Assembly (NCBI GenBank): GCA_001779115.1
Contig: MFJF01000015.1
Location: 22,491-86,490 of the forward strand
Direction: 5' to 3'
DNA: 64,000 bases
From: Candidatus Gottesmanbacteria bacterium RIFCSPHIGHO2_01_FULL_40_15
Lineage (GTDB): Bacteria; Patescibacteriota; Microgenomatia; 2-02-FULL-39-11
Position 1 is the first letter of the stretch, and each line of letters begins with the position of its first letter. Positions 5,460 through 57,507 of the stretch are shown here, piece after piece. Made by a program: the position numbers and the translations under genes. The notes below the pieces were generated by a model that saw nothing but the letters and a program-made list of their open reading frames with translations, ran no database searches and was not told where the DNA came from.

Positions 5460-5461
5460 AC

Positions 5462-6481: not shown

Positions 6482-6485
6482 AGAT

Positions 6486-22638: not shown

Positions 22639-22671
22639 GGCTTGAGAAATTATATCTTCCTGCCTGAGTTT

Positions 22672-26758: not shown

Positions 26759-26765
26759 TAATTTT

Positions 26766-29200: not shown

Positions 29201-29204
29201 AAAA

Positions 29205-35999: not shown

Positions 36000-36024
36000 A
36001 ATAAAGCATGCTAAAATACCGGAT

Positions 36025-36951: not shown

Positions 36952-36956
36952 TCGAA

Positions 36957-38432
36957 ATGGATAAAAATAAAAGCATAGTAGTTATGGGTGCCGGTTTGGC
37001 CGGTTTATCCTGTGCTTATGAACTGGCCAAAGCTGGCAAAAAAGTTACTGTTATTGAGAAATGGGAGGATGTCGGGGGATTGGCAAGAACAATAAAAGTA
37101 AACGGTTTTTCGTTTGATACCGGTCCCCACCGCTGGTATACCAAAAATGACATGGTTAACAATTGGATGCTTCAGCTGATGAAGAGCGAAATCACCAAAG
37201 TCCCCAGGTTAACCAGGATTTATTTCGATAATAAATTCTTCCATTATCCGATCCAAATAAAAAGTACCATAAAAGGCATGGGTCTGGTTAAAACTTTCTG
37301 GGCCGTTGTTGATTATCTTATGGTCAGGAGTTTGTCTTTCTTTCATAAGGCTGAACCGGTCACAATTGAAGAAGGCTATATCAGCCAATTCGGCCGGACG
37401 CTGTATGAAATGTTTTTCAAAAGATATACCGAAAAACTTTGGGGAAGATCCTGCCGGGAAATTTCCGCCGACTGGCTCGGACAGAGATCAAGGGGTTTCA
37501 ATATTTCAACCGTTATTAAAAATGCTCTTTTTTCAAAAGAGAAGGTCGTATCATTCGTGGATGAATTTTCATATCCACAAAAGGGTATAGGCCGCCTGGC
37601 CCAAAAATTGGCACAAGGAGTCAAAGAGGCAAAAGGCACTCTCTATTTAAACAGCGAAATCATCAAAATTAATCACCGGGCCGGAAAAATTAGTTCGGTT
37701 ACCGTCAAATCAGGTAAAAAATTATGGGAAATCAAAGGCGAAGAATTTGTTTCAACTATTGCTGTTTCGGACCTAATAAACGGCTTGATGCCGCCCGTTC
37801 CCGGAGCTGTAGCTAAATTCAATAACCGTCTTAAATACCGCGATGAAGTCCAGGTTGTTCTGTTTATAAATAAAACCCGTGTTACGCCGGACACCTGGGT
37901 TTATGTTCATGCTTTAGATATTCCTTTTGTCCGGTTCATGGAAATGGATAACTGGAGTAATAAACTCACGCCTAAAGGAAAAACAGCCATAGTTTTCGAA
38001 ATTGTCTGCAATTACGGTGATAAAGTATGGAATATGCCGGATAAGCGCCTGGCCGACCTCGTTTCTGAAAAATTCATCAGTAGTTTTAAATTAATCAAAA
38101 AGGAAAATATTATCGGCTGGCATATCCACCGTGTTCCCAAAGAATATCCTGTTTACCACATCGGCTACCGCAAAGACCTGGAGGTAATAAAATCATATCT
38201 TGGCAGGTTTTCCAATCTTCAGATTGCCGGAAGAAACGGGATTTTCCGTTATAACAATATGGACCATTCCATTGAAATGGGTCTTTATGCCGCCTGGAAC
38301 ATTCTTGAAGGAAGCCGGAATTTCAATATCGAATCGGTCAATATTGACAGGGAATATCTTGAGGAAAAGAAGGTTGTTTTAAGAGCACCTGAACTGCCGG
38401 AAGATCAGTATGTCCAAGAATATAAAAATTAA
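36957..38432 (+). CDS. FAD/NAD(P)-binding oxidoreductase with an amine-oxidase or UDP-galactopyranose-mutase-like fold
   Basis: The N-terminus VVMGAGLAGLSCAYELAKAGKKVTVIEKWEDVGGLARTIKVNGFSFDTGPHRW is a dinucleotide-binding signature. 491 aa. Confidence 0.5.
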   Translation: MDKNKSIVVMGAGLAGLSCAYELAKAGKKVTVIEKWEDVGGLARTIKVNGFSFDTGPHRWYTKNDMVNNWMLQLMKSEITKVPRLTRIYFDNKFFHYPIQIKSTIKGMGLVKTFWAVVDYLMVRSLSFFHKAEPVTIEEGYISQFGRTLYEMFFKRYTEKLWGRSCREISADWLGQRSRGFNISTVIKNALFSKEKVVSFVDEFSYPQKGIGRLAQKLAQGVKEAKGTLYLNSEIIKINHRAGKISSVTVKSGKKLWEIKGEEFVSTIAVSDLINGLMPPVPGAVAKFNNRLKYRDEVQVVLFINKTRVTPDTWVYVHALDIPFVRFMEMDNWSNKLTPKGKTAIVFEIVCNYGDKVWNMPDKRLADLVSEKFISSFKLIKKENIIGWHIHRVPKEYPVYHIGYRKDLEVIKSYLGRFSNLQIAGRNGIFRYNNMDHSIEMGLYAAWNILEGSRNFNIESVNIDREYLEEKKVVLRAPELPEDQYVQEYKN

Positions 38433-39183
38433 GGGAAACCCTAAAAAAAAAGTCATAGTGGTCATGCCGGCTTACAATGCCGCAAAGACCCTGGAGAAAA
38501 CTTACCGGGATATTCCCAATAAAAATGTTACGGAAATTCTGGTAGTCGATGATGACAGCTCGGACGAAACCGTCAGGATTGCAGGTAAGTTAAATCTGCC
38601 GACATTCCTTCACAAAAAAAATCTGGGATATGGGGGCAACCAAAAAACCTGTTATAAAAAGGCACTGCAAAGGGGAGCCGAAATTGTGGTCATGATACAT
38701 CCGGACTACCAGTATGATGCCACTCTCACGGATGAACTTGTTGCTCCTGTTGCCGCTTCTCGGTTTGATATAATGCTTGGCAGCAGGATCAGAAGCCGCC
38801 GGGAAGCTTTATCCGGAGGAATGCCCTATTACAAATATATAAGCAACCGTTTGCTGACACTATTGGAAAATCTGGTACTCGGGTTGAATTTGTCCGAATA
38901 TCATACCGGCTTCAGGGCGTTTAAAAGAAGTGTACTGAAAACTTTACCTTTGGACAGTTTTTCCGATGATTTCGTTTTTGATCAGGAAATTCTTATTTGC
39001 GCCCATGCGGCCGGATTTACGATAGGCGAAATACCGGTACCGGTCCGCTATTTTCCTGAAGCTTCGTCAATTAATTTCACCAGGTCGGTGGTTTACGGAC
39101 TGATGATAATTAGAACTCTTTTTTTATATCTTCTGCACAGAATGAAATTAAACATTAAGATATTCAGATTTAATAGGGCATAA
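38410..39183 (+). CDS. GT2 polyprenyl-phosphate sugar synthase (Dpm1/GtrB-like)
   Basis: KVIVVMPAYNAAKTLEKT...ILVVDDDSSDETVRIA. Lies immediately upstream of YfhO-like paralog A3. Confidence 0.7.
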   Translation: MSKNIKIKGNPKKKVIVVMPAYNAAKTLEKTYRDIPNKNVTEILVVDDDSSDETVRIAGKLNLPTFLHKKNLGYGGNQKTCYKKALQRGAEIVVMIHPDYQYDATLTDELVAPVAASRFDIMLGSRIRSRREALSGGMPYYKYISNRLLTLLENLVLGLNLSEYHTGFRAFKRSVLKTLPLDSFSDDFVFDQEILICAHAAGFTIGEIPVPVRYFPEASSINFTRSVVYGLMIIRTLFLYLLHRMKLNIKIFRFNRA

Positions 39184-39191
39184 AAAGGAAA

Positions 39192-40847
39192 ATGAAAAGG
39201 ATTGACTGGCTGGTAATTTTATTTATTATCCTCGCTTCGGTATTTACTCTGAAAGATCTTTTTCGGCCGGATTTCTACACCAGCCATGACGGACCGCATC
39301 AGGTTGTCAGACTCTATCATTATGATCAATTGTTGCGGCAAGGCCAAATACCTCCCCGGTGGGTCAATGACCTTAATCACGGTTTCGGCTACCCGCTTTT
39401 TATTTTTTCCTACCATATGCCCTGGCTGATATCCGCTCCCTTCATGTTTTTCGGATTATCAGTATTCATATCCATAAAAATGACTTATTTAACGGGTTTT
39501 ATACTTTCGGGAATTCTTATGTACTTTTATCAGAAAAAACTTTTTGGTGTTTTACCCGCATTTATAGGAGCTTTCCTGTATTTGTTTGCCCCTTACCGGT
39601 TCTCCAATATCTTTGTCAGGAGTTCAATAGGTGATGCTACCGCCTTTATTTTTCCGCCGCTTATTTTCTGGTCATTTGACGTTGTGCGTTCAAAAGGGAA
39701 ATTAAATTATTTTTGGCTTTTCCTCTATGCGGCCTCTCTATCGGCCCTTCTTTTGACCCATGCCATGCTATTTTTCCTGTATGTTTTAATCCTGTCGGTT
39801 TATATCCTTTACTGGTTCGTATTCTCCTCCAACAGGAAAAAAATTATTTCAGTTAATGTACTGGGATTCTTAATGGCTGTTTCCCTGTCAGCTTTTTATC
39901 TTTTTCCCTCCTTATTAGAAAGAAATTTTACTGTTTTTAATTCGGTAATGAAAAACGCGTTTTCTTCGCAGTCTTTTATCCCCATATCGCGCCTTTTTTA
40001 TTCACCCTGGGGGTATGGTGTTGTTGACGCGTATGAGGGCGCTATGTCGCTTCAGCTGGGTTTTGCCCAATGGTTGTCATTTCTACTTGGATTACTTCTA
40101 TTTATTTATTTACTGACAAGAAAATCAATGCGGAATATAAATTACGGCTTCATATATATTCTGATATTTATCCTGTCTGTATTTTTAATGCTGAAATCTT
40201 CAGCTCCGATTTGGCAGTTTATTACCCGCTTTGTCTTAATTGATTTTAAATGGCGGATTCTTCACGTGACGGTTTTTGCCGCTGCCATTATTTCGGGTTG
40301 GTTTATTTATAACCTAAAAATACTTAAGCGCCGCTTGTGGACGGCGTTTGCTGGATTTTTTCTTATTAGTCTTTCAATTTATGCCAACCGGAACCACCTG
40401 AAAATAAACCAGGTCCTTGATTGGCCGGTTGACTTTTACCTGAAATTGGAAAAAACCACCAATTCATTTGATGAGTATACGCCCATTTGGGCTCACGCGG
40501 GTATAATCAGGGAAAACGCGTCGCCGGCCGAATTTTCCGCTCCGGCCGGTATCAGGATTATCAGTTCCACATCGGTAAAAAAAGATCTGGAGCTGGAAAC
40601 AGAAAGTGAAGGAGTTTTAACCCTCAACACTCTTTATTATCCCGGTTGGCAGGTATTTATAAACGGTAAACCGGTTGATATTGATTACCAAAACCGCGGT
40701 CTGCTGGAATTTCCCGTTGCCAAAGGAAAAAATATTATTTCAGCCCGCTTTGAAAAAACACCTATGCGCCTGATATCGGATACCATCACCCTATCGGCTA
40801 TAATATTATTACCCGGATTCCTGATATACAAAAAAATCTATGGTTAG
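39192..40847 (+). CDS. YfhO-like GT-C family polytopic membrane protein (A-family paralog A3)
   Basis: HDGPHQVVRLYHYDQ...PPRWVNDLNHGFGYPLFIFSYHMPW and a C-terminal YYPGWQVFINGKPVD domain. Confidence 0.6.
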   Translation: MKRIDWLVILFIILASVFTLKDLFRPDFYTSHDGPHQVVRLYHYDQLLRQGQIPPRWVNDLNHGFGYPLFIFSYHMPWLISAPFMFFGLSVFISIKMTYLTGFILSGILMYFYQKKLFGVLPAFIGAFLYLFAPYRFSNIFVRSSIGDATAFIFPPLIFWSFDVVRSKGKLNYFWLFLYAASLSALLLTHAMLFFLYVLILSVYILYWFVFSSNRKKIISVNVLGFLMAVSLSAFYLFPSLLERNFTVFNSVMKNAFSSQSFIPISRLFYSPWGYGVVDAYEGAMSLQLGFAQWLSFLLGLLLFIYLLTRKSMRNINYGFIYILIFILSVFLMLKSSAPIWQFITRFVLIDFKWRILHVTVFAAAIISGWFIYNLKILKRRLWTAFAGFFLISLSIYANRNHLKINQVLDWPVDFYLKLEKTTNSFDEYTPIWAHAGIIRENASPAEFSAPAGIRIISSTSVKKDLELETESEGVLTLNTLYYPGWQVFINGKPVDIDYQNRGLLEFPVAKGKNIISARFEKTPMRLISDTITLSAIILLPGFLIYKKIYG

Positions 40848-42689: not shown

Positions 42690-43829
42690 ATGATATTTTT
42701 CATCTTTCATTTTTTTATTGTTTGGCGGATATTTTTATTCCTTGCCGCATATACCGGTTCTTTTATTCTTCCGTTTCAACCCCGTTTTCCTTATGCTGAT
42801 ACTCTTCTTATTCCTTCGGGTCTTCCGGCCTGGCTCTGGTCTTTTGCCAATTTTGACGGAGTTCATTATCTGACAATAAGCCGATATGGATACAGCGCCC
42901 AGTTTACCCAGGTTTTTTTCCCACTTTATCCGCTTCTTTTGGGACTTGTCAATAAAATTCTTTTTTTTCTTCCGCGGCTTTTTTCAGGACTTATGGTTAC
43001 CAACCTGTTTTTTTTATCAGCGCTTTTTGTTTTTTACCGGCTCATGAGAATGGATTTTAATGTCCGCCAAATCAGATGGATGATTGTATTTCTTCTCTTT
43101 TTTCCGCTTTCTTTATACTTTGGCAGCCTTTATACCGAAAGCCTGTTCCTGTTACTTTTGCTAAGCGCCTTTTATTTTGCCCGCCGACGTCACTGGCTGG
43201 CTGCCTCGGTAGTAGCTGCACTCGCCGGATCAACGCGGCTGGTGGGTGTTTTTCTTCTGCCGGCCCTGCTATGGGAATGGTATCTGCAGTCAAATAATAA
43301 AAAAGTAAGTTTATTGCTGTCCGTGACCCGTTCTCCGGTTACCTATGTAGTTCCTCTTGGACTTTTGGTTTACATGGTTTATCTGCAGATTAATTTCGGT
43401 GATCCTCTTTATTTTTGGCATGCCCAACCCGTATTCGGCGCAGAGCGTTCAGGCAGTTCTATCGTACTGCTTCCCCAAGTTCTCTGGCGTTACCTGAAAA
43501 TCTTTAAGACCGTTCCCAAAAACAGTCTTACGTTTTGGATTCCTTTTACGGAGCTTGTCTCTTTTTTTCTGGCCGCCGTTTTTCTGATTATTGCCCACCT
43601 GAAAAAAATCCGTTTTTCTTATCTTCTTTTTTCCTGGCCGGCTCTAATTGTTCCGTCTTTAACCGGAACGCTTTCCAGTATGCCCCGTTATGTGCTTATT
43701 CTTTTTCCCATATTTCCGATTTTAGGCCTTATCGCTTCTTCTAAAATAAAATTGACTATTCTGGCTTTTTTTGTCATTTTATTGGCCTGTTATACAATTC
43801 TTTTTACCCGGGGATTATGGGTTTCCTGA
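42690..43829 (+). CDS. PIG-V-like (GT76-type) GT-C mannosyltransferase homologue
   Basis: NFDGVHYLTISRYGYSAQFTQVFFPLYPLLLG resembles the PIG-V WDGxxYLxIAxxGY...AFFPL signature. 379 aa, polytopic. Confidence 0.5.
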   Translation: MIFFIFHFFIVWRIFLFLAAYTGSFILPFQPRFPYADTLLIPSGLPAWLWSFANFDGVHYLTISRYGYSAQFTQVFFPLYPLLLGLVNKILFFLPRLFSGLMVTNLFFLSALFVFYRLMRMDFNVRQIRWMIVFLLFFPLSLYFGSLYTESLFLLLLLSAFYFARRRHWLAASVVAALAGSTRLVGVFLLPALLWEWYLQSNNKKVSLLLSVTRSPVTYVVPLGLLVYMVYLQINFGDPLYFWHAQPVFGAERSGSSIVLLPQVLWRYLKIFKTVPKNSLTFWIPFTELVSFFLAAVFLIIAHLKKIRFSYLLFSWPALIVPSLTGTLSSMPRYVLILFPIFPILGLIASSKIKLTILAFFVILLACYTILFTRGLWVS

Positions 43830-43850
43830 AATTATTTCATTAGAAAAATA

Positions 43851-44535
43851 TATGGATTTATTGATCGGTATTCCGGCATTCAACGAGGAAACAATGATCG
43901 GTAAAGTATTAAAATCACTGCCGAAAAGAATACCCGGTATTGACCGCATTGATATATTGGTTGTTGATGACGGTTCATCCGACAGAACTGCTGCGGTGGC
44001 AAAAAATTCAGGCGCTTTAGTCTTAAGGCATATTATTAACCGCGGTCTTGGTGGCGCCCTGAAAACAATATTTGCATATGCCGGTAAATACCGGTATGAT
44101 CTCCTGGTGACAATTGATGCGGACGGACAGCACCATCCGGCTGATATAGTGAAAATCCTCCGGCCGGTAATTGATAACGGTAAAGACGTGGTTATCGGTA
44201 CAAGATGGAAAAATTCCTTAAAGAAAAAATTTATTCTCCGTTATCTGATAAATCAGCTGGCCAATTTTTATACTTTTTTACTCTACGGGATAGAAACCGG
44301 TGATTCGCAATCCGGTTTCCGTTCTTTTTCAGGAAAAGCGGTCAAAAAAATTAATTTGAGTTCGGACGGAATGGAAGTATCCAGTGAATTTTTCAGGGAA
44401 ATTTACCGACATGGTCTTATCTATGATGAAGTGCCGGTTAAGCTTATTTATACCGACTATTCCCAGGGTAAGGGTCAGCGTCTGTCAAACGCGCCCAATG
44501 TTTTTTTCAGGCAGTTTTTAAGACTGTTAAGGTAA
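43851..44535 (+). CDS. GT2 polyprenyl-phosphate sugar synthase (Dpm1-like)
   Basis: LIGIPAFNEETMIGKVL...ILVVDDGSSDRT...TIDADGQH. ATG 43851 is preferred over the ORF-track start at 43771. Confidence 0.7.
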
Positions 44536-44536
44536 T

Positions 44537-44893
44537 ATGCCGTTCACATTTACCCAAATTTTTTTAAGCCTGTTTTTATTATTCGCCATCAGCCGGGTAG
44601 TTATCCGTTTCCGGGAAGGCATACTGCCTTTGTTGGGATTTGCTTTTTGGCTGGCGGTTTTCGGCTTTGCCATTGTTATCGTTCTGTTTCCCGGATTAAC
44701 CAGCGTATTGGCCACTGTTGTGGGGATCGGCAGGGGAGCCGATTTTGTGATATATGTATCAGTCAGTCTTATTTTTTTCCTTATTTTCAGACTGTATATC
44801 TATTTGGAGGATATCAGGCATGATATTACCGAAATTATCACGCATTTGGCTCTAGAGAATAAAAAACGGAAAAATGCCCGGAAAACTTCCTAA
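44537..44893 (+). CDS. small 3-4-TM membrane protein (DUF2304-like partner of Dpm1-type GT2)
   Basis: 118 aa and hydrophobic, immediately after the GT2. GT2 plus a small membrane protein is a common arrangement. Confidence 0.4.
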   Translation: MPFTFTQIFLSLFLLFAISRVVIRFREGILPLLGFAFWLAVFGFAIVIVLFPGLTSVLATVVGIGRGADFVIYVSVSLIFFLIFRLYIYLEDIRHDITEIITHLALENKKRKNARKTS

Positions 44894-45662
44894 AATCAGT
44901 ATAATTACTCCCTCGTTAAATCAGGGAAAATTCATTGAGCGTACGATTAAGTCCGTTCTTGACCAGAAATATCCTCAGCTGGAGTATATCGTCATGGACG
45001 GCGGATCAACTGATCAAACACTCCGGATTCTCAAAAAATACAAAAGCAGGTTAACTTATTTTACCGGACCGGATAAAGGCCAGTCTGACGCTATCAATAG
45101 GGGATTAACCATGGCAACCGGTGACATCGTCGCCTACATTAATTCCGATGATTATTATTTACCGGGTACATTCGATTACATTACCCGTGCTTTTTCCGAA
45201 AAAAATGCCAAGTGGATAATAGGTATGTGCCGGAATGTTGATACTAATGGGAAAAAAACCAGAAATTATGTTTCACTATGGAAAGGATTATGGTATCGGT
45301 TTCCCTTTCCGGTGAAATTTAAAAGCAATATTTTATATATTCTTAACTTTATACCTCAACCGGCAGTTTTTTGGAAGAGATCGGCAATGAAAAAAATTGG
45401 CTTTTTTGATGTTTCTCTGAATTTTGCCATGGATTATGATTTCTTTATCCGTTTATTTAAATATTCATCACCTGTAATAACAAAAAGGGAATTAGCTTCC
45501 TATACCATTCAAAAGCAAGCTAAAAGTTTCAGATTCAGTAAAGAATCATTTAATGAGAGTTTAAAAGTTGCCAAAAGATATACTTCTTCACCTGTTTTTT
45601 TAACTCTCCATTATTTGCATGACCTTTTGGCATACAGAATTTATATAAATTCATCACAGTAA
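44874..45662 (+). CDS. GT2 glycosyltransferase
   Basis: KISIITPSLNQGKFIERTIKSVLDQKYPQLEYIVMDGGSTDQT...NSDD. Confidence 0.7.
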   Translation: MPGKLPKISIITPSLNQGKFIERTIKSVLDQKYPQLEYIVMDGGSTDQTLRILKKYKSRLTYFTGPDKGQSDAINRGLTMATGDIVAYINSDDYYLPGTFDYITRAFSEKNAKWIIGMCRNVDTNGKKTRNYVSLWKGLWYRFPFPVKFKSNILYILNFIPQPAVFWKRSAMKKIGFFDVSLNFAMDYDFFIRLFKYSSPVITKRELASYTIQKQAKSFRFSKESFNESLKVAKRYTSSPVFLTLHYLHDLLAYRIYINSSQ

Positions 45663-45666
45663 TAAT

Positions 45667-45674
45667 TATATAAT
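45667..45674 (+). promoter_or_regulatory. candidate -10 element (TATATAAT) upstream of the fcl-like gene
   Basis: TATAAT at 45669-45674, 20 nt before ATG 45694, in a 31-nt intergenic gap. Confidence 0.25.
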
Positions 45675-45693
45675 TTACTTTTAAACCAAATTT

Positions 45694-46629
45694 ATGAACG
45701 GGGTGTTTTGGAAAAATAAAAAAGTCCTGGTTACCGGCGGAAACGGATTTCTCGGCGGCGTTCTGGTCAAACAGCTTAAAAAAATTAACGCCCAGGTATT
45801 TTCCCCAGCATCAAAAGAACTCGACCTGCGGATAAATAAAAATTGCCGAAAAGCGGTTTCAGGGCAGGAGATAGTCATACACTTGGCTGCAAAAGTCGGC
45901 GGTATCGGCTATAACCTTAATCATGCCGGAGAAATGTTTTATGACAATATAATAATGGGAGCGCAATTGATGGAGGAGGCCAGAATTGCCGGTGTTAAAA
46001 AGTTTGTCGCGTTGGGAACAATTTGTGCATATCCAAAATTTACCAGGGTGCCTTTTAAGGAAAAGGATCTTTGGAACGGTTATCCTGAAGAAACTAATGC
46101 TCCGTATGGCCTTGCTAAAAAAATGCTTCTGGTACAATCTCAGGCATATCGCCAGCAATACGGTTTCAACTCCATTTTTCTTTTACCGGTTAATCTCTTT
46201 GGTCCCGGTGATAATTTTGACCCGCTTTCTTCCCATGTTATTCCGGCTTTAATAAGAAAAATTTCAATTGCAAAAAAGAATCATTCAGCCAGTGTAACGG
46301 TGTGGGGAACCGGCAATCCGACCCGCGAATTTTTATATGTTGACGATGCTGCGGAAGGAATTATTTTAGCCGGTGAAAAATATAATAAATCCGAACCTGT
46401 AAATTTGGGGGCCGGCTTTGAAATAACAATTAAAAAATTAGTTTACGAGATTTGTAATCTTATGGAATATCATGGCAGTATAATTTGGGATAAATCCAAA
46501 CCTGACGGGCAGCCCAGAAGAATGTTAAACACGAAAAAAGCGTTCATGGAATTCGGTTTTAAAGCGAAAACCGACTTCATAACCGGATTGGAAAAAACAG
46601 TGAATTGGTACAAGAAAAACCGATTTTAA
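45694..46629 (+). CDS. GDP-L-fucose synthase-like (Fcl/ColC family) NAD(P)-dependent epimerase/reductase
   Basis: [33 protein letters not shown] and [10 protein letters not shown] (the Fcl signature). Confidence 0.75.
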
Positions 46630-46640
46630 TTCGGGGATAA

Positions 46641-47822
46641 TTATTTTGAAAAAATTTTTATCAGGGTATTTATTTCTTTTCCTGTTAATTCCGGATTGTT
46701 TCCGAAATAGAGACCCTGCTCATGAATCAGCCGGGCTTGGCTTTGGGAATAATTAAAAGAAATTTTACCCATGTATTTGCGGAAAAAAGGTTGGGTTGTA
46801 ATGTCTCCCCCGACAATCGGTCTTATTTCCACTTTTTTTTCGCATTTGGCTACCAGCTTATCGCGTATTTCTCTTGATTTACAAATAAGGGGAAAAGCAA
46901 AATTGGAGATAAAATCCAAATGGTTGTATTTAACCGGATAATAAAGTTTAGGGTTAGTGTAAAGATATTCAGCCAGCCTTTTGAAATTATCCCTTCTCTT
47001 TTGGTTAATTTCATCAAGATATTTCAGTTGGATATTTCCCAAAAACCCCGCTATCTCGGTCGGTCTCAAATTGAATCCCAAATCATAAAATGTATAACGG
47101 GAATAAAAAGTTGAGTTGACTTTAAAGCGGTTCCGTATGCTGTTTTGTCTCGCCAAAGACAAATTCCTGTCCCAACCGTGGGCTCTGACAATCCGCAGCA
47201 TCGAAGCCAGGTTGTAATTGTCCGTCAGAACGGCTCCTCCCTCAACAGTTGAGAGATGATGCCCGACATAAAAGGAAAAAGTTGAGGCCAATCCGAAATT
47301 GCCGAGCTTCTTTCCCTTATAAATGCTCCCCAAAGCTTCACAGTTATCCTCAATAAGAATGATCTTGTTGTCACGGCAAATTTCAGCGATTTTATCCGGA
47401 TCGGAGCAAAATCCCAGTAGATTTGTCAAAAACAGCATTTTTAACGGATATCTTTTTAAAGTTTTATGAACCGTTTCAGAGTGTACATTCAGAGTTTGCA
47501 AAGAAACATCAACCGGAACGGCAGTCAGACCAAGCTGAATAAGCGGCATGACGTTAGTTGACCAGGTTAGGGCGGAAAAACCGACCATATCGCCCCGTTT
47601 AAGAATCCCCAGATTAATAAGAGCCATGATGATTGCCAGGTTGGCGGAACTGCCGGAATTTACCAATACGCACTGTTTCCGTTCCTGATATCCTGAAAAA
47701 TTTTTCTCAAACAGTACGCATTCCCGCCCAAAACTCAGCTGCTTGGTTCTGTTTATAAACTCTGTCAGATTTTTCTTGGTTTCAGATTCTTTGAAAAAAG
47801 TTGATTTGATCAGCTTAATCAT
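46641..47822 (-). CDS. DegT/AHBA-fold PMP-dependent sugar-nucleotide 3-dehydratase (ColD/E1 DdhC-like). The PLP-binding Lys is replaced by His.
   Basis: Type I aminotransferase fold (VLVNSGSSANLAI...). At the Schiff-base position the sequence reads FSFYVGHHLSTVEGG, with His where aminotransferases have Lys, as in ColD and CDP-6-deoxy-D-xylo-4-hexulose 3-dehydrase. Confidence 0.6.
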   Translation of the reverse strand: MIKLIKSTFFKESETKKNLTEFINRTKQLSFGRECVLFEKNFSGYQERKQCVLVNSGSSANLAIIMALINLGILKRGDMVGFSALTWSTNVMPLIQLGLTAVPVDVSLQTLNVHSETVHKTLKRYPLKMLFLTNLLGFCSDPDKIAEICRDNKIILIEDNCEALGSIYKGKKLGNFGLASTFSFYVGHHLSTVEGGAVLTDNYNLASMLRIVRAHGWDRNLSLARQNSIRNRFKVNSTFYSRYTFYDLGFNLRPTEIAGFLGNIQLKYLDEINQKRRDNFKRLAEYLYTNPKLYYPVKYNHLDFISNFAFPLICKSREIRDKLVAKCEKKVEIRPIVGGDITTQPFFRKYMGKISFNYSQSQARLIHEQGLYFGNNPELTGKEINTLIKIFSK

Positions 47823-47837
47823 AATTTTTTTAATTTT

Positions 47838-48527
47838 TCAATTAAAATTATTCCCTTTAATGATTTCCCTTAAAAAGTAATAAATGAATTTAATTCCCGT
47901 GGGAATTGCTGCCGAACCACTTTTTCCGCCGACCCTTTTGCCTTCCCGGGTTGGAATTTCAACGATTTTCATCTTTAATTTTAAAGCTCTAATGGTCATC
48001 TGAAATTCAACCGCGTATCCTTTTGCATCAAGTTTAAGTTTCCGAAAAGAAGTTTTCCTTATCGCCCTGTATCCGTTAATACTGTCTGTGATTTTACTTT
48101 TCCAGATGACATTTACAAGCAGTGTGAATCCGCGGTTAGCCCATGCCCTGAATTTTAAGATATTATCATCTTCTTCATTTCTTGATTTTTTCGTAAACCG
48201 GGAGGCGATTGCCATATCCGCGCCTTTTATCAGCTGTTTGACTAACTTTGGAATATCGGCCGGATCTTCATTTCCGTCAGGACTGAAAAATATAAGGTAT
48301 TTTCCCTTGGCTTTTTTGAAAGCCAGATAAAATGCCTCCGCCCGTCCCGGATTTTTCTGCTTCAAAACCGGAATTTTATTTTTAAGGAAATATTCGACTG
48401 TTCCGTCGGAAGACTTGTAGTCAACGGCAAAATACTCGTCAACCTTTTTAAAAGGTATTTTTTTAAAAAGATTTTTAACACCGTCGATTTCATTCCGTGT
48501 CAGGATGATAAGTGTTGTCTGTACCAT
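47838..48527 (-). CDS. GT2 polyprenyl-phosphate sugar synthase (Dpm1-like)
   Basis: TLIILTRNEIDGV...AVDYKSSDGT...FFSPDGNEDP. Confidence 0.65.
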   Translation of the reverse strand: MVQTTLIILTRNEIDGVKNLFKKIPFKKVDEYFAVDYKSSDGTVEYFLKNKIPVLKQKNPGRAEAFYLAFKKAKGKYLIFFSPDGNEDPADIPKLVKQLIKGADMAIASRFTKKSRNEEDDNILKFRAWANRGFTLLVNVIWKSKITDSINGYRAIRKTSFRKLKLDAKGYAVEFQMTIRALKLKMKIVEIPTREGKRVGGKSGSAAIPTGIKFIYYFLREIIKGNNFN

Positions 48528-49471
48528 TCAATTGTTTCCTTCAGTCCCTCTTTAAGCGGTGTTTCGGCGGTAAAACCGATTTTAGCTGTTGCTTTTTTTG
48601 TATCACAGCTCCTTCTCGGTTGTCCATCGGGTTTAGAAGTATCAAATTTAATTTTGATCTTCGAACCCGTAAGTTTAAGAATTAATTTTACCAGGTCACC
48701 GATAGGGATTTCTTCATCCGAACCGATATTAACCGGATCGGCCACGGGATATTTTTCGGCGGTCAAAAGTAATCCCCTGGCAAAATCCCGGGAATATAAA
48801 AAAGACCTTGTCTGTTTGCCGCTTCCCCATACAACTAAAGGATTTTCCCCGTCAAACACCCGTTTGATTATACCCGGAATGACATGCGAAATTTCCGGGT
48901 TAAAGTTATCCCTGGGTCCGTATGCGTTATAAGGTCTGGCGATAGCTACTTTCATTCCGAATTCGCTGTTATAAAAACGGCCCAGAAGTTCCGCCGTCCT
49001 TTTGGCCCAGCCGTACCCCAGGTTGCTCGGTTCGGGATCACCGATAAACCCTTCCGATTCCGGAGTCGGGATCGAGGTATTTCTCGGATAAATGCAGGCG
49101 GAAGAAACAATAAGGAATCTATCCGTTCCGTTCTCATACGCCGCTTTAATCATATTCTGGGCAATTCTGACGTTATCTTCAAACATTATGGCCGGATGAA
49201 CTATGTTATATTGGATTCCGGCGACTTTAGAGGCCAGATTAAGAATAATATCCTGATTTCTTGATGCACGTTTGGCCTGAATATAATCCGTCAGATCAGC
49301 TTTATAAATTCTTATTCTTTTTTTATGATGACTGATTTTCTCGATGTTTCCGGTTTTAGTTATTACCGACACTTCAGCTTTTTTTTGGAGAAGCAAATCA
49401 ACAACATGGGATCCGATAAATCCGGCACCGCCCGTAACCAGAACTTTTTTATTCTTCCAGTAATCATTCAT
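48500..49471 (-). CDS. Fcl-like NAD(P)-dependent sugar-nucleotide epimerase/reductase (second copy). Start taken at [15 protein letters not shown].
   Basis: VLVTGGAGFIGSH, SHVIPGIIKR, NLGYGWAKR and a [12 protein letters not shown]-terminus place it in the Fcl family. Confidence 0.7.
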   Translation of the reverse strand: MNDYWKNKKVLVTGGAGFIGSHVVDLLLQKKAEVSVITKTGNIEKISHHKKRIRIYKADLTDYIQAKRASRNQDIILNLASKVAGIQYNIVHPAIMFEDNVRIAQNMIKAAYENGTDRFLIVSSACIYPRNTSIPTPESEGFIGDPEPSNLGYGWAKRTAELLGRFYNSEFGMKVAIARPYNAYGPRDNFNPEISHVIPGIIKRVFDGENPLVVWGSGKQTRSFLYSRDFARGLLLTAEKYPVADPVNIGSDEEIPIGDLVKLILKLTGSKIKIKFDTSKPDGQPRRSCDTKKATAKIGFTAETPLKEGLKETIEWYRQHLSS

Positions 49472-49548
49472 GGTAAACAATAGTATATAATAAGACAGCA
49501 ATCATCATTAAGAATAAGTTTATCTGCATTACAAATTAAATTAACAAA
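49472..49548. promoter_or_regulatory. divergent intergenic region with a TATATAAT box (49484-49491)
   Basis: 77-nt AT-rich gap between minus-strand gene start 49471 and plus-strand gene start 49549. Confidence 0.3.
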
Positions 49549-51453
49549 ATGAGACGAAATTATCTTCTGCTCATTTTTTTTATTCTTTTTTTTCAAATAT
49601 TTTTTATTCTGATTGACCGTCACAGCTATTATTTCGATATGAAATATTATTTAAATACCTCATCTGTTCTGCATGAGGCTTTTAGAAATATATTCACATA
49701 TCCATTATCATTCGGGAAAATACATTATTTCTTCACAATGCTTTTAACAGGTTACCGGCCGTCTTTATATTATATTCCCGGTATTATTTTAGGTAGCCTT
49801 TGGAAATTTAATGCCAAGATATTTGTAATTATTACTTACCTTTTTTATTTCACGCTGGCTTCACTGACAATTTATTCAGTTGCTCCAAGGAATTCTCTGG
49901 AAAACATTTATAAAACTGCTTTTTTACTGTTTATTATCAGTCCGCAAATTTTAGTTTATGGAAGATACCCTATGGTTGAATTTCCGTTATTTTTAATAGT
50001 CGCTGTAACTATTATTCTTTATTTATATTCTGACAGTCTTACCCGTTCTCCTTATTGGCAATTATTCATAATATTTTCGGTTGCCGGGATGCTAATTAAA
50101 TTCAGCTATGTTTCTTTTGTAATCTATCCGGTTTTGTTTATCGCGGTTCTTGACAGTCTTTTAATAATTAGGTCAATGGGTTGGCAGGGCTATTTATCAA
50201 GGTTTGAAAAAGAAAAAAATTTCCGAATCTTACAGGCAGCTTTTTTTCTGTCTTTATTTTTAATCGGTCTGAGTATTTTTAGCGGATTCAAAGGTTATTT
50301 TCTCGGCAATTTACACCACTTTTTAAGAACAGAGGTTGCCGGTTACTGGTCATACCCTTATCAAACCTTTCCGGAAAAATTATGGTGGATTTTAATAGCG
50401 CCCACGCAAATAACAACCGTTCCGGTACTTTTATTATTTATTTTGGGAATAATTTTTTACGGCCGGAAATTGAATAAATTGTATATTTTTATTTTATTGC
50501 CCCTGATTCAATTCGGTTTTTTCATGCAATCAAAAGGTGCCAGACTGTTTGCTCCGGTTGTCTTTCCCATTTGTCTCGTCGCGGCTTACGGATTGAATCA
50601 TTTACTCAGTAGAATGCCGACTGTTTTTAAAAAGAGATATTTTTCTATAATTTCCTTATTTATTATTATTAATATGTTCAGCAGCGTTTTTATTTCCCTA
50701 GATCACGCTCCGGCATACGAATATCCGGAAGGAGGCAGCATTGATATTTTTAACGGTTTAACCGTTCAGGCAGTTACCCGGGGAGGTTGGGGGGAAGACA
50801 AAAATATTTGGGATGAAAAAGTTAAGGATATCACCGGGATTATTCTGGACAGACAGGTGCAAAAAGCCACTGTTGTCCATCTATACTATACTGTTAAATT
50901 ACCGCCTTACAATCAGGAATTGGAAAAAAAAGGATATAAGCAGGTAATCGATGAACTCTTATGGCCGGAGGCTCAACGGTTTCCTATTGAAGTATTTACT
51001 GCAAAAAATGTATTTATCATCAGAAAAACCGGAAACTTTACCCATTGGGGGGAGAAAGGTACGGGGTTGGAACTTGAAAGGAATTTACGGTTTTTAAACG
51101 GACGGTTTGCCGATAATACTTCAATTTGGCGGAAAAAAACAATTAAACTGAATGATGTAATATTACCTGATAAATCAATAGTTGAAATATTTTACAGATA
51201 TGATGATTTGACTGATGAAGAAACAGTCCGGCTTTATGAAGAATTCTTAAATTATGATTATCCTAATGCAATAAATATAAAAATCGCGGAAAGTCTGATT
51301 GAATATTTTACAAATTCAAAGGAGCCGGAAAAAATATATTACTGGCGAAGTTGGGTTAAAAATGCCGAAATTCATCCGAAAGTTATCCGTCTGCTTTCAG
51401 TTAAAGACATTAAAAAAGTTAACGAAATTCGGGAGAAGCTTCTAAATAATTAA
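49549..51453 (+). CDS. polytopic membrane protein (about 380 aa) fused to a C-terminal soluble domain of about 250 aa; unknown function
   Basis: 634 aa. At least 10 hydrophobic segments, then a hydrophilic domain. No recognised motif. Confidence 0.45.
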   Translation: MRRNYLLLIFFILFFQIFFILIDRHSYYFDMKYYLNTSSVLHEAFRNIFTYPLSFGKIHYFFTMLLTGYRPSLYYIPGIILGSLWKFNAKIFVIITYLFYFTLASLTIYSVAPRNSLENIYKTAFLLFIISPQILVYGRYPMVEFPLFLIVAVTIILYLYSDSLTRSPYWQLFIIFSVAGMLIKFSYVSFVIYPVLFIAVLDSLLIIRSMGWQGYLSRFEKEKNFRILQAAFFLSLFLIGLSIFSGFKGYFLGNLHHFLRTEVAGYWSYPYQTFPEKLWWILIAPTQITTVPVLLLFILGIIFYGRKLNKLYIFILLPLIQFGFFMQSKGARLFAPVVFPICLVAAYGLNHLLSRMPTVFKKRYFSIISLFIIINMFSSVFISLDHAPAYEYPEGGSIDIFNGLTVQAVTRGGWGEDKNIWDEKVKDITGIILDRQVQKATVVHLYYTVKLPPYNQELEKKGYKQVIDELLWPEAQRFPIEVFTAKNVFIIRKTGNFTHWGEKGTGLELERNLRFLNGRFADNTSIWRKKTIKLNDVILPDKSIVEIFYRYDDLTDEETVRLYEEFLNYDYPNAINIKIAESLIEYFTNSKEPEKIYYWRSWVKNAEIHPKVIRLLSVKDIKKVNEIREKLLNN

Positions 51454-54301: not shown

Positions 54302-56254
54302 ATGTGCGGAATAGCCGGAATATATTATTTTAACGGGAAAAAAGCGGATAAAAAAATCTTAGACCGGATGATTCAGGCTTTAATTCACCGGGGACCAGAC
54401 GATCAGGGTAACAAATTGCACGGCAATGTCGGTATTGCCAATTGCAGACTGGCGATTATTGACCTATCCAAACGCGGCCGGCAGCCGATGACTGACTCTA
54501 CCGGAAATGTCAGCATTACTTATAACGGTGAAATTTTCAATTATCAGAAGTTAAGGGAAAAACTTCTCAGGTCAGGCTACCGCTTTAAATCGGAAACAGA
54601 TACGGAGGTTATCTTAAACGGTTATCTTAAATGGGGAGAGGGGATTGTTTCCAAATTAATCGGTCAATTCGCTTTTTGTATTTGGGATAAAAATACAAAC
54701 AGTTTACTGTTAGCCAGGGATCAACTGGGTATAAATCCGCTGTATTATATTCAAAAGGGAAATTTTTTTTTATTCGCTTCCGAAATTAAAGCTTTAATTG
54801 CCTCAGGTCTTATAAATCGGGAAATTAATCCCCAGGCAATTCATCATTTCCTGTCTGTATTTCATATACCGCAACCCATGACAATTTTTCAGGATATAAA
54901 ATCACTTTTGCCGGGCCATTATCTTAAGGTTTCCGGAAACGGACTGAAATCAACCTGTTTTTGGCAAATACCTCTGGGCGGTTGGAAAAATAACCGGCTG
55001 TCAAAAAATGAAATAAAAGAAAAACTTAGATATCAGCTTATTTCTGCGGTTGATGCTGCCAGCGTATCAGATGTACCGGTATCCGCATTTTTATCAGGAG
55101 GAATTGATTCATCAGCCGTAGTTTCTTTATTAGCTCAAAAAAGTTCATATCCGATAAAAACGTTCTGCCTTTACTATCAGGGTGACAGCTATTTTGATGA
55201 AAGACATTTTGCCAGGATTGTATCCCGGATGTATTCAACCGAACATAATGAAATAACTGTCAGTAATACGGAAATTAAAAATGAGTTACCCAAAATAATT
55301 TATTTTTATGACCAGCCTACCGGCGGATCTTTTGAAACATACTTTATTACGAAAGCTGCCGGTAAATCGACAAAAGTTGCCTTATCTGGACTGGGAGGGG
55401 ATGAACTTTTTGCCGGATATCACTCGCTGATTTATAAATGGAAATTTTTGTCTTCTCTGTACCGTAAAATACCCGGTCCATGGCTCAATTTCATTCATCA
55501 TTCTTTGGAAAGGTTACCCCTTAAAGCTGATCTGAAGCATACAATCACAACCGCCGATAAATTTTTAAGGCTTAGTAATCCGGTAAAACAGCGCTTATTT
55601 TATTATTTTGTATTTAATGAGGCTGAAAAAAAGAAAATGTATTCGGCTGAATATCTTTCAAATAAGGACAATTATGAAACTGAAAAGTATTTCACTGATC
55701 TTGCGGATTATGTCAAGGAGTATTCCGCTGTCAGCCAGCTTTATTATATGGATTTGACAAGTTATACGCGTGACGACCTTCTATTAGGCATGAACATGAT
55801 GAGCATGTGTAATTCTCTCGAAGTCAGAGTCCCCCTTTTAAATCCGGAACTGGTTTCTTTTGCCGACAGTATTCCGCCGCATTTAAAATACCAAAACGGT
55901 ATCTCAAAATACATATTTAAAGAAGTAGTCCGGGAATGGCTGCCGGAGGAAGTAATATACAGGAAGAAAAAAGGATTCGGTTTACCGAGGTCCAAAATAA
56001 TGAAACAAGGTTTAAAAAAATACATTTATAATTGTTTGAATTCTGGCATTTTTATTAAGAGAGGATATTTTAATCCTTCCTATATCCGTTCTCTTACTGA
56101 TACGTTTTTCCGTGATAATTCAAAAAGACACCTCTGGAGCCAGGATCTGCAGATTTGGATTCTCTTTATTTTTGAATTATGGTGCCGTCTCTATCTGGAC
56201 CGGAAAGAAGTTACAGTTCCTTCAATAACACTCTCAGATTTAGTAGATCTATGA
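54302..56254 (+). CDS. asnB: asparagine synthetase (glutamine-hydrolysing)-like amidotransferase
   Basis: MCGIAGIY N-terminal nucleophile, and a SGGIDSS PP-loop. 650 aa. Confidence 0.85.
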   Translation: MCGIAGIYYFNGKKADKKILDRMIQALIHRGPDDQGNKLHGNVGIANCRLAIIDLSKRGRQPMTDSTGNVSITYNGEIFNYQKLREKLLRSGYRFKSETDTEVILNGYLKWGEGIVSKLIGQFAFCIWDKNTNSLLLARDQLGINPLYYIQKGNFFLFASEIKALIASGLINREINPQAIHHFLSVFHIPQPMTIFQDIKSLLPGHYLKVSGNGLKSTCFWQIPLGGWKNNRLSKNEIKEKLRYQLISAVDAASVSDVPVSAFLSGGIDSSAVVSLLAQKSSYPIKTFCLYYQGDSYFDERHFARIVSRMYSTEHNEITVSNTEIKNELPKIIYFYDQPTGGSFETYFITKAAGKSTKVALSGLGGDELFAGYHSLIYKWKFLSSLYRKIPGPWLNFIHHSLERLPLKADLKHTITTADKFLRLSNPVKQRLFYYFVFNEAEKKKMYSAEYLSNKDNYETEKYFTDLADYVKEYSAVSQLYYMDLTSYTRDDLLLGMNMMSMCNSLEVRVPLLNPELVSFADSIPPHLKYQNGISKYIFKEVVREWLPEEVIYRKKKGFGLPRSKIMKQGLKKYIYNCLNSGIFIKRGYFNPSYIRSLTDTFFRDNSKRHLWSQDLQIWILFIFELWCRLYLDRKEVTVPSITLSDLVDL

Positions 56255-57411
56255 GAATAATTCATCTGATAGATTATTTCCAGCCGAAACTGGGCTACCA
56301 GGAAACTTACCTTGCCTTAGCGCATTTAAGATTGGGACACCATGTTACCGTAATAACATCTGATCGCCACTATCCGTTTTCCGATTATGCTTCAGCTTTC
56401 CAGAAGATATTGGGAGAAAGAAAGAAAAAACCGGGCAAATTTAAAGAATATGGCCTGGATACATTAAGACTTGCGGCAATTGAAATGCCTTTCACTCCGG
56501 TGATATTTCTTCGTAATTTAAAGACTGCCTTAGCGCATTTAAATCCTGATATGGTTTTTTGTCATGGGATATTTTCAGTTGTGTCATTTCAGGCAGCCCT
56601 TTATAAGGAACAATTTTCATACAAATTGTTTTATGACAGTCACGCCGCTGATTTTAATACGGATTTTGAAAATTCATTATTAAAAAAATTCTATTATTTA
56701 CTGTACATCAAACTGATGGCACCCGTTATCAAAAAAGCCGCCGATAGATTATTCGCAGTAGGGGAGGCGGAAAAGAAGTTTCTTCTGCGTTTTCTTAAAA
56801 TTCCCAATTATCGGGTTGAAATATTAAGAGTTGGCATTGATCCTGTTTTTTTGAAAGCTAAAAAAGAGAAGCGGATGGAAATACGCAGAAAATTGGGCAT
56901 TTCGCCTGATGAATTTGCCATTATTTACACCGGCAAAATCGCTCCGGGGAAAGATTTGCCTGTATTACTCCGGGCGGTTAAATTGCTTGAAGGATTGCCC
57001 GTAAAAATTCTGATTATTGGCGGAGGTAACGTACATTATATCGAAAAATTAAAAAAGCAATATCCTTTTCGGGAAAAAGTTATTTGGACCGGTTTTATTA
57101 CCAATAAAATGTTAACAAAGTATTATAGTGCTGCTGACACGGCAATCTGGCCCGGTAATCCGTCAGTAGCTGTTCTTGAAGCTATGGCCGCCGGATTACC
57201 GGTCATTATTTCCCGTTGGTTTGGTACCCGGTATTTGAATAAAAACAAAACAGTTTTGTCATTTCCCCGGGGAAATCATATAAAATTAGCTAATTTAATT
57301 AAAATATTATCAATTAATAGCCAATTTAGACAAAAATTGGGAATAAAAGCCCAATTATTCATAAAAAATGAATTATCTTGGGATAAAATCGCAAAACAAG
57401 CTATAATTTAG
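56251..57411 (+). CDS. GT4 (GT-B) glycosyltransferase
   Basis: VAVLEAMAAGLPVIISR is a GT4 motif. ATGA overlap with asnB. The ORF-track start at 56179 is rejected. Confidence 0.7.
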   Translation: MRIIHLIDYFQPKLGYQETYLALAHLRLGHHVTVITSDRHYPFSDYASAFQKILGERKKKPGKFKEYGLDTLRLAAIEMPFTPVIFLRNLKTALAHLNPDMVFCHGIFSVVSFQAALYKEQFSYKLFYDSHAADFNTDFENSLLKKFYYLLYIKLMAPVIKKAADRLFAVGEAEKKFLLRFLKIPNYRVEILRVGIDPVFLKAKKEKRMEIRRKLGISPDEFAIIYTGKIAPGKDLPVLLRAVKLLEGLPVKILIIGGGNVHYIEKLKKQYPFREKVIWTGFITNKMLTKYYSAADTAIWPGNPSVAVLEAMAAGLPVIISRWFGTRYLNKNKTVLSFPRGNHIKLANLIKILSINSQFRQKLGIKAQLFIKNELSWDKIAKQAII

Positions 57412-57428
57412 TATATTTACCATTAAAA

Positions 57429-57457
57429 TTGACTTCATATGAAATTTTTATTATCAT
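57429..57457 (+). promoter_or_regulatory. candidate sigma70-like promoter TTGACT-N17-TATCAT
   Basis: TTGACT at 57429-57434 and TATCAT at 57452-57457, in the 96-nt AT-rich gap before ATG 57508. Confidence 0.35.
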
Positions 57458-57507
57458 TTTCTGCAATTATTTGTATATTTTTCTTCTTTTAATACTTTTA
57501 TGTCTTT

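Follow-up and report, generated by a model that had tools for sequence, protein, structure and literature searches.

The 3,6-dideoxyhexoses, a group of rare and strongly antigenic sugars, have been described chiefly in the lipopolysaccharide (LPS) of Salmonella, Yersinia, Escherichia coli and Vibrio. The described systems closest to the one treated here include those of two 3-dehydratases that have the fold of sugar aminotransferases and a histidine in place of the Schiff-base lysine: ColD (WbdK), the GDP-4-keto-6-deoxy-D-mannose 3-dehydratase of E. coli O55 and Yersinia pseudotuberculosis, whose partner ColC is GDP-L-colitose synthase, and E1 (DdhC/AscC/RfbH), the CDP-6-deoxy-L-threo-D-glycero-4-hexulose 3-dehydrase, which acts with the reductase E3. 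A gene of this type lies in a 64-kb stretch (the window hereafter) of the 149.6-kb contig MFJF01000015.1 from Candidatus Gottesmanbacteria bacterium RIFCSPHIGHO2_01_FULL_40_15, of which about 18 kb of flanks on the same contig were also read. This organism belongs to the Candidate Phyla Radiation (CPR), whose members are generally described as lacking LPS.

The gene is part of a four-gene block at 45694-49501, probably a cassette that serves the synthesis and delivery of a 3,6-dideoxyhexose. The block encodes the predicted dehydratase, two extended short-chain dehydrogenases/reductases (SDRs) of the Fcl/ColC family, called S1 and S2, and a small glycosyltransferase of family GT2. Judged from its sequence, it very probably makes a rare 3,6-dideoxy sugar by way of a ColD-type 3-dehydratase, and delivery of that sugar on a lipid carrier for cell-surface glycosylation is plausible. 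The 3-dehydratase chemistry and the His-for-Lys hallmark are already known, and what is new is the organism and the proposed lipid-carrier route. Since the enzymology is textbook, the value of the locus lies mainly in annotation and in hypothesis-building. The genes in question are as follows (lengths in amino acids, aa).

45694-46629, plus strand: S1, an extended SDR of the Fcl/ColC family (311 aa)
46641-47822, minus strand: predicted ColD-type (Fe-S-free) PMP-dependent nucleotide-sugar 3-dehydratase, where PMP is pyridoxamine 5'-phosphate (393 aa)
47838-48527, minus strand: small Dpm1/DPMS-like GT2 (229 aa)
48500-49501, minus strand: S2, an extended SDR of the Fcl/ColC family and first gene of the minus-strand operon (333 aa from TTG)
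49549-51453, plus strand: polytopic membrane protein, divergent from the operon and a weak GT-C candidate (634 aa)
5462-6481, plus strand: homolog of CDP-tyvelose 2-epimerase (TyvE), 40 kb away from the cassette (PDB matches 9rl0 and 1orr)

All four reading frames of the cassette were confirmed where the initial annotation had placed them. That annotation ended S2 at 49471, the position of an internal ATG (residue 11) that is plausibly the true start. S2, the GT2 and the dehydratase gene form a compact minus-strand operon, with an overlap of 28 nt between S2 and the GT2 and a gap of 15 nt from the end of the GT2 to the dehydratase gene. S1 is convergent with the dehydratase gene, and their stop codons are 11 nt apart. 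A related genome (L093 in our set of comparison loci) is collinear with the window over nine genes upstream and two genes downstream, at 42-72% protein identity. In the slot between its ortholog of the GT2 at 44874-45662 and a large membrane protein, L093 has a single GME/Fcl-like SDR; in the window, that slot is occupied by S1, the dehydratase, the GT2 and S2, to which the L093 SDR is unrelated. Because the block replaces a single SDR in an otherwise collinear locus, the four genes behave as one exchangeable unit in a variable slot of a syntenic locus.

The guanine-plus-cytosine (GC) content is 35-42% across the window, and the base composition of the cassette does not differ from that of its flanks. 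Promoter and terminator scans of 45400-49800 returned counts no higher than in shuffled sequence. A 47-nt inverted repeat, 85% complementary (45709-45755 and 49413-49459), brackets the cassette and corresponds to the 5' coding ends of S1 and S2 on opposite strands. This DNA similarity is far above what the 41% protein identity of S1 and S2 would lead one to expect; gene conversion is a possible origin, as is a role as an inversion substrate.

The predicted 3-dehydratase and its family

The 393-aa protein matches Pfam PF01041 (DegT_DnrJ_EryC1) with 199 bits over residues 13-389. Among solved structures it is nearest to ColD (2gms, E = 1.5e-52) and E1 (3bcx, E = 5e-41), followed in the PDB ranking by 9wvy, a putative NDP-4-keto-6-deoxyglucose 3-dehydratase, and only then by aminotransferases. 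The motif FSFYVGHHLSTVEGG is encoded at 47235-47279 on the minus strand (codon of His188 at 47259-47261). In HMMER alignments the first His of its 'GHH' falls on ColD His188 and E1 His220 and no lysine occupies the position, which bears out the initial reading of the gene as a His-for-Lys 3-dehydratase of the DegT fold. ColD His188 is the residue mutated in the H188K and H188N chains 2r0t and 3b8x. PMP-site and phosphate-binding residues are conserved: G56, S57, W88, D159 and E162, and further S183, H188, H189, R219, N248 and R331, are identical in the query and in native E. coli O55 (CB9615) ColD. ColD Ser187 is Gly187 in the query and Ala in E1. Aminotransferases have Asn-Lys at the 187-188 pair, as does the S187N/H188K mutant chain of ColD (3gr9), and the query thus has a small residue where they carry Asn. 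G187-H188-H189 is invariant in 25 close homologs, and His188 is found in all 110 aligned full-length representatives of 50%-identity clusters.

The initial annotation had proposed checking for the [2Fe-2S] motif that sets E1 apart from ColD, which in E1 reads C193-X57-C251-X-C253-X7-C261. Opposite C251, C253 and C261 the query has R219, L221 and I229; the sole cluster cysteine kept is C161, opposite C193, which ColD keeps too. Because three of the four cluster cysteines are absent, the protein is assigned to the ColD type and not to the E1 type. It also lacks the N-terminal extension of E1, and no E3-like or ferredoxin-reductase-type gene was seen in the window. On the criteria for PMP-dependent 3-dehydratases that a review sets out together with their mechanism (PMC8987622), it is predicted to be a cluster-free enzyme of the ColD kind. 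The E1-type loop cysteines occur in none of the 110 aligned representatives, all of which have His188; cluster-free His-type enzymes therefore appear to be the rule and E1 the exception. The close clade has six to seven invariant cysteines (C35, C51, C139, C149, C161, C314 and C327). An alternative Fe-S site among them was considered and dropped, because only C149 and C161, which ColD-like enzymes generally share, persist in relatives at 40-49% identity.

The AlphaFold model of the protein (pLDDT 80.9) has ColD as its best structural match (TM-score 0.79), followed by E1 and then GDP-perosamine synthase. Its confidence is low at residues 188-191, 215-221 and 237-253. These stretches, and the fact that the activity of the His-for-Lys protein is a prediction, would fit an inactive or regulatory relic of an aminotransferase. 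We regard a relic as extremely improbable. The low-confidence stretches seem to be dimer-interface and active-site loops, which are expected to be poorly modeled in a monomer prediction. The protein has more than 7,000 homologs at E <= 1e-20, the best 120 of them at 65-71% identity; active-site residues are invariant in the close family, where mean column identity is 76%, and the histidine is kept across the 110 diverse representatives.

The query is 33% identical to ColD and 32% to E1, which are themselves 31% identical, and its best-scoring NCBIfam model is RfbH, at 220 bits and below the cut-off of 423. It resembles ColD in fold, in size (393 versus 388 aa), in His188, in the absence of the [2Fe-2S] motif and in its PMP- and phosphate-site residues. 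It differs in overall identity, in having Gly187 for Ser187 and in having no gmd, manB or manC alongside. Characterized ColD-type enzymes are 62-67% identical to one another (PMC10440746), and because the query falls so far below that range it is placed in a separate clade; it is not an ortholog of either ColD or E1. The initial label 'colitose/ascarylose-type' accordingly holds as a sequence-based assignment of enzyme class and does not extend to orthology with ColD or E1 or to the product.

The clade is large, distinct and, as far as we found in the literature, uncharacterized. In a library of representatives at 50% identity, 659 clusters match the query at E <= 1e-30. Homologs come mostly from unnamed metagenomic sequences, and the few with an organism name are mainly from Patescibacteria. 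A scan of GTDB genomes with the dehydratase alone returned three loci, none of the His-type clade (best 28% identity, L006), the peptide patterns used being too specific, and a metagenome scan based on an alignment took its place. The window-type clade could represent a third dehydratase clade, cluster-free and with a nucleotide specificity of its own. Three metagenomic loci (L013, L063 and L083) have two window-type copies within a few genes of each other, which suggests duplication, possibly with divergence of specificity inside the clade.

Partner reductases, proposed pathway and nucleotide carrier

GDP-L-fucose synthase is the top NCBIfam model for both S1 and S2, with 277 and 209 bits (cut-off 500), and their best PDB matches, again GDP-L-fucose synthases, are 8du0 (E = 7e-61) for S1 and 7ll6/8du0 (E = 6e-48) for S2. 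Alignment to E. coli Fcl and ColC gives T109, C111, Y138, K142 and H181 as the catalytic residues of S1, and S134, C136, Y163, K167 and H206 of S2 correspond to Fcl S107, C109, Y136, K140 and H179. Both keep the Ser/Thr-Tyr-Lys reductase triad and the Cys109/His179 acid/base pair of epimerization, the full epimerase/reductase set of the Fcl/ColC family, as the initial annotation of two flanking Fcl-like genes would have it.

Gene neighborhoods were counted in 84 loci with close homologs of the dehydratase, of which 57 are informative and 38 are large. Fcl-like SDRs are by far the commonest neighbors. At 50% identity or more, an S2-type SDR lies within three genes of the dehydratase in 20 of the 57 informative loci, an S1-type SDR in six, and one or the other in 25. 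S1-type SDRs (64-68% identical) adjoin the dehydratase in L003, L004, L037 and L063, among others, and L037 is the single locus that has both types, as in the window. The gene just downstream of the dehydratase is most often an S2-type SDR, so that context, which is clearer than sequence on this point, suggests S2 for the role of ColC. An Fcl-family epimerase/reductase is likewise encoded next to the dehydratase in E. coli O55 (CB9615), where colC and colD are adjacent and overlap.

The pathway that we propose would begin with an NDP-4-keto-6-deoxyhexose, most likely GDP-4-keto-6-deoxy-D-mannose, supplied by a 4,6-dehydratase encoded outside the window. In the active site of the 393-aa enzyme, PMP would form a Schiff base with this substrate; His188, which stands where the lysine usually is, would take the C4' proton, and the C3 hydroxyl would leave. 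As the enzyme has no [2Fe-2S] cluster, hydrolysis of the enamine intermediate would follow as in ColD, with no need for an E3-type reductase, and PMP would be regenerated from glutamate. S2 could then act on the 4-keto-3,6-dideoxy product as a C5- (or C3,5-) epimerase and C4-reductase, giving an NDP-3,6-dideoxy-L-hexose, either colitose or its C4 epimer. S1 may be a GDP-L-fucose synthase that makes a 6-deoxy (fucose-type) sugar from the shared 4-keto-6-deoxy precursor, or else another reductase that gives a second (C4) stereoisomer. In Campylobacter jejuni HS:5 and HS:11, the ColD-type PMP/PLP C3-dehydratases for GDP-3,6-dideoxyheptoses act ahead of a C5-epimerase and of alternative C4-reductases, the latter determining the stereochemistry of the product (PMC10440746). 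By analogy, these alternative C4-reductases would be a precedent for two isomers made by S1 and S2, although the C. jejuni enzymes, unlike that of the window, are 62-67% identical to ColD, have a separate cupin epimerase and have heptose-activation genes nearby.

Several findings weigh against a pathway of this kind. Because the dehydratase is only 33% identical to ColD and 32% to E1, its substrate and nucleotide are not transferable by homology. Identity to ColC and to Fcl is 32% and 33% for S1, and 28% and 31% for S2; because neither is closer to ColC than to Fcl, sequence alone does not decide which has the ColC role. Neither a 4,6-dehydratase nor a nucleotidyltransferase, Gmd and ManC included, is present in the 64-kb window, and a ManC homolog is found in none of the 84 neighborhoods. 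The one candidate seen for the missing step, a gene of the Gmd/Rmd family, lies some 6 kb upstream of where the window begins and some 51 kb away from the dehydratase, and is closest to Rmd, a reductase. In the large loci, genes that resemble glucose-1-phosphate cytidylyltransferase (6 of 38) and TyvE-like genes of the CDP family (4 of 38, in addition to the homolog in the window) point to CDP as the carrier.

The search for a 4,6-dehydratase and a nucleotidyltransferase that the initial annotation had proposed was thus negative within the window and yielded one candidate outside it. The candidate was reached through a contig, L089, that is 99.97-100% identical to the window over a 13-kb overlap and extends upstream; the gene lies on the same contig as the window and matches Rmd 2pk3 (E = 2.5e-82), GDP-manno-heptose 4,6-dehydratase 7us5 (E = 2e-70) and Gmd (E of about 1e-46). 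It belongs to a series, at L089:663-5055 and about 3.6-8 kb upstream of the window start, of UDP-glucose dehydrogenase, Gmd/Rmd SDR, UXS/ArnA-C-terminal-like SDR, GT2-GtrA fusion and PMT_2 genes that looks like an Arn-like or xylose/arabinose-type lipid-linked module, and because of this placement its role is ambiguous. Within the window, the SDRs at 35983 and 59479 were rejected as 4,6-dehydratases since they are GalE-like, and the SDR at 51472 is RmlD-like.

Characterized enzymes of the Fcl family all use GDP-sugars, to our knowledge. Because S1 and S2 belong to this family, because the upstream candidate is of the Gmd/Rmd family, and because Gmd-family genes occur as neighbors elsewhere (no more than 10 kb from the dehydratase in about 10 of the 38 large loci, and inside the L094 module described below), the balance tips modestly towards GDP as the carrier, with CDP a distinctly less probable choice. 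A specific CDP pathway can be drawn, in which a cluster-free, E3-independent 3-dehydratase acts on CDP-4-keto-6-deoxy-D-glucose, an Fcl-like SDR yields a CDP-3,6-dideoxy-L-hexose of the ascarylose type and the TyvE-like enzyme epimerizes C2. It would account for the strong TyvE homolog at 5462-6481 (9rl0, E = 6e-107; 1orr, E = 5e-101) and for the same TyvE-like SDR cluster being found only a few genes away from the dehydratase in L005, L017 and L086, and the query is about equally close to E1 and ColD. Gmd-family genes are nevertheless the more frequent neighbors, and the cytidylyltransferase-like genes (268 bits for TIGR02623, whose cut-off is 300) sit by a separate set of cupin, C-methyltransferase and SDR genes and not by the dehydratase. 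An SDR cluster, c7, which in other loci is the SDR most often found directly upstream of the dehydratase gene and which has no ortholog in the window, scores equally for CDP- and dTDP-glucose 4,6-dehydratase; it was rejected as the missing 4,6-dehydratase, since its 'STSQVYG' motif is without the acidic catalytic residue and its PDB matches are generic. With no cytidylyltransferase or CDP-glucose 4,6-dehydratase in the window or in the flanks read, and with partner SDRs from a family of GDP-sugar users, we consider the full CDP pathway unlikely. The initial annotation had also tied the TyvE homolog to the cassette; the homology stands, and the gene may act in the same or a related dideoxy- or deoxyhexose pathway, a link that is circumstantial.

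The GT2 and the proposed lipid-linked route

The best NCBIfam matches of the GT2 are AglJ (93 bits), dolichyl-phosphate hexose transferase, PpgS and ArnC, and its sole PDB sequence match is the DPMS of Pyrococcus furiosus (5mlz, E = 1.1e-13), in keeping with the Dpm1-like assignment first given to it. Inspection of sequence and length reveals no transmembrane segment in its 229 aa, against 374 aa for the P. furiosus enzyme. Human Dpm1 and PpgS likewise have no such segment. The family is conserved, with about 2,100 proteins at E <= 1e-30. On these matches the GT2 is a predicted member of the polyprenyl-phosphate glycosyltransferase subgroup (Dpm1/DPMS, GtrB, ArnC, PpgS, AglJ), and we propose that it is a polyprenyl-phosphate:dideoxyhexose transferase.

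Orthologs of S2 and of the GT2 stand beside a His-type DegT protein in all five of the other inspected contigs that carry them (L001, L094, L095, L096 and a contig from JGI). L001 has the gene order window-type dehydratase, S2, GT2. In L094, L095 and L096 the order is a DegT protein of about 400 aa, an SDR of about 321 aa (the S2 ortholog, 65-67% identical), the GT2, a PMT_2 GT-C protein of about 525 aa and a MOP flippase; the GT2 orthologs of these three loci and L001 are 64-69% identical to that of the window. No gene lies between the GT2 and the downstream PMT_2 gene, and in two of the three loci they overlap by 4 nt; L094 has a Gmd-like SDR at the end of the module. On the JGI contig, for which gene calls only are available, the DegT protein and SDRs adjoin the GT2 on the opposite strand, and no PMT_2 is among the called genes. 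The DegT proteins of the three ordered loci (L094:4874-6079, L095:4874-6079 and L096:4831-6030) have His at the lysine position within the motif STYVAHIIVTGVGG. Their identity is 26-28% with the window enzyme and with ColD alike, and their NCBIfam scores for PseC and RfbH are about the same. They make up a second, distant and apparently uncharacterized His-for-Lys clade in the position of the dehydratase.

Because S2 and the GT2 always accompany a His-type DegT protein, from either of the two clades, there is strong genomic evidence that the dehydratase, S2 and the GT2 act in one pathway. The alternative is that they are chance neighbors in a dense glycan island: the SDRs would make GDP-L-fucose or another 6-deoxyhexose, the GT2 would load an unrelated sugar, and the DegT protein would serve a separate pathway or act on, for example, a 6-deoxy-4-keto-heptose as in C. 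jejuni HS:5. Glycan synthesis is the theme of nearly every gene in the window, so that adjacency by chance would come easily; heptoses are known substrates of ColD-family enzymes (PMC10440746), GDP-manno-heptose 4,6-dehydratase is among the matches of the upstream Gmd-family gene, and L001 is the only one of the 84 window-type dehydratase loci with the GT2. Chance adjacency is nonetheless very unlikely, given the tight same-strand arrangement of S2, the GT2 and the dehydratase gene, the recurrence in five of five other contigs, the predominance of Fcl-like SDRs among dehydratase neighbors and the replacement of the block as one unit relative to L093. The heptose genes gmhA, hddA and hddC were, moreover, not seen in the window.

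In the cassette as we propose it, the DPMS-like GT2 would move the dideoxy sugar onto polyprenyl phosphate, the lipid-linked sugar would be flipped, and a GT-C enzyme of the PMT_2 type would place it on a cell-surface acceptor. The last step, hand-over to a GT-C enzyme, is suggested because a PMT_2 gene follows the GT2 in L094, L095 and L096. Such a combination of DegT-fold enzyme, SDR, small GT2 and PMT_2-type GT-C recalls the Arn (ArnB-ArnA-ArnC-ArnT), Dpm1/PMT and PpgS/Rv3632/Rv3779 systems, and the Arn-like gene order is complete in those three loci and partial in the window. Unlike in Arn, the DegT-fold enzyme is a His-type dehydratase and not a transaminase, and the SDR is Fcl-type and not a UDP-GlcA decarboxylase. 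The contrast with the ColD locus is that a DPMS-like GT2 takes the place of the Leloir colitosyltransferase inside the operon, and that the host is a CPR bacterium. We know of no lipid-linked dideoxyhexose that has been described.

In the window itself, the candidate for the GT-C step is the 634-aa membrane protein, which sequence similarity suggests only weakly to be a GT-C transferase using a lipid-linked sugar. Five homologs were found, one of which carries PF13231 (PMT_2), and the protein is 29.5% identical over 237 aa to the PMT_2 protein of L094 (E = 1e-7 in a tiny database). The lipid route is weakened by several observations: the 634-aa protein has no Pfam match above threshold, and its AlphaFold model is poor (pLDDT 60.7) and unusable for fold comparison; the GT2 is below the curated cut-off of every NCBIfam model that it matches, and its 'DAD' motif reads S-P-D on inspection. 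Since the GT2 accompanies the window-type dehydratase in L001 alone of the 84 loci, Leloir transferases probably use the dehydratase sugar in most genomes instead.

What goes beyond routine annotation is the size and distinctness of the dehydratase clade, its prevalence in CPR bacteria and the recurrent module of dehydratase, Fcl-like SDR, DPMS-like GT2 and GT-C. From the sequences at hand, 3,6-dideoxy sugars may be widespread surface components of uncultivated ultrasmall bacteria, about whose cell envelopes and chemistry of host attachment very little is known, and the linkage of a DPMS-like GT2 to a GT-C enzyme offers a concrete hypothesis for how CPR envelopes are decorated. As a tentative extension, which we hold to be possible and short of probable, Patescibacteria may carry a widespread Arn/Dpm1-like extracytoplasmic module made up of a His-type dehydratase from either of two unrelated clades, an Fcl-type SDR, a DPMS-like GT2 that loads a polyprenyl monophosphate, and a GT-C enzyme. 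If so, a lipid monophosphate would for the first time be described as the carrier of a dideoxy sugar, and 3,6-dideoxyhexoses, known mainly as O-antigen determinants of Gram-negative pathogens, would also occur on the surfaces of ultrasmall CPR bacteria. Cluster-free, reductase-independent 3-dehydratases would also provide new options for the enzymatic synthesis of dideoxy sugars.

Other glycan genes of the window

Besides many extended SDRs and GT4s, the window encodes five or more small Dpm1-like GT2s and eight or more polytopic proteins of the PMT_2/YfhO type, numbers that speak for the lipid-linked route. At 43771-44893, a PpgS-like GT2 (NCBIfam PpgS, 140 bits) is followed by a small DUF2304 membrane protein, an arrangement that is conserved in L093 and that we take to be the pairing of mycobacterial PpgS (Rv3631) with Rv3632; a PIG-V-like membrane protein is encoded upstream of the pair (42690-43829). 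Six to seven consecutive polytopic proteins of 536-656 aa, five of them with PMT_2/PMT matches, make up a tandem array of GT-C paralogs at 25085-35999. Other PMT_2/YfhO proteins are encoded at 34-1389, 19299-21590 and 39192-40847.

A module at 35983-40847, collinear in L093, consists of GalE (4zrm, E = 7e-85), a 491-aa FAD/NAD(P) oxidoreductase of the PRK07208 family with a weakly UDP-galactopyranose-mutase-like N-terminus, a Dpm1-like GT2 and a YfhO-like membrane protein, and suggests a lipid-linked route of the galactofuranose type. The TyvE homolog lies within 4722-8350 between two Dpm1-like GT2s (4722-5459 and 7607-8350). Next comes a GalE/LegB-like SDR in which some 40 inserted residues interrupt the Pfam match; its open reading frame spans 6345-7610, and the gene is called elsewhere as 374 aa with a start near 6486.

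Further on, 54302-60489 encodes an asparagine-synthase-like amidotransferase, a GT4, a GFO/IDH/MocA oxidoreductase that is UDP-GlcNAc 3-dehydrogenase-like (154 bits), an ATP-grasp protein and a GalE-like SDR, and looks like a pathway for an amidated or amino-modified sugar. Just past the window end, two Lys-type DegT aminotransferases, one of them LegC-like (368 bits), are found at L090:14538-19864. Genes of housekeeping type are embedded in the glycan island at 8360-9526 (minus strand) and 22642-25037 (plus strand), encoding a queuine tRNA-ribosyltransferase (Pfam TGT, 390 bits), a transaldolase-like protein and a hisC-like aminotransferase. A weak mannose-6-phosphate-isomerase signal comes from a small cupin encoded at 9587-9988.

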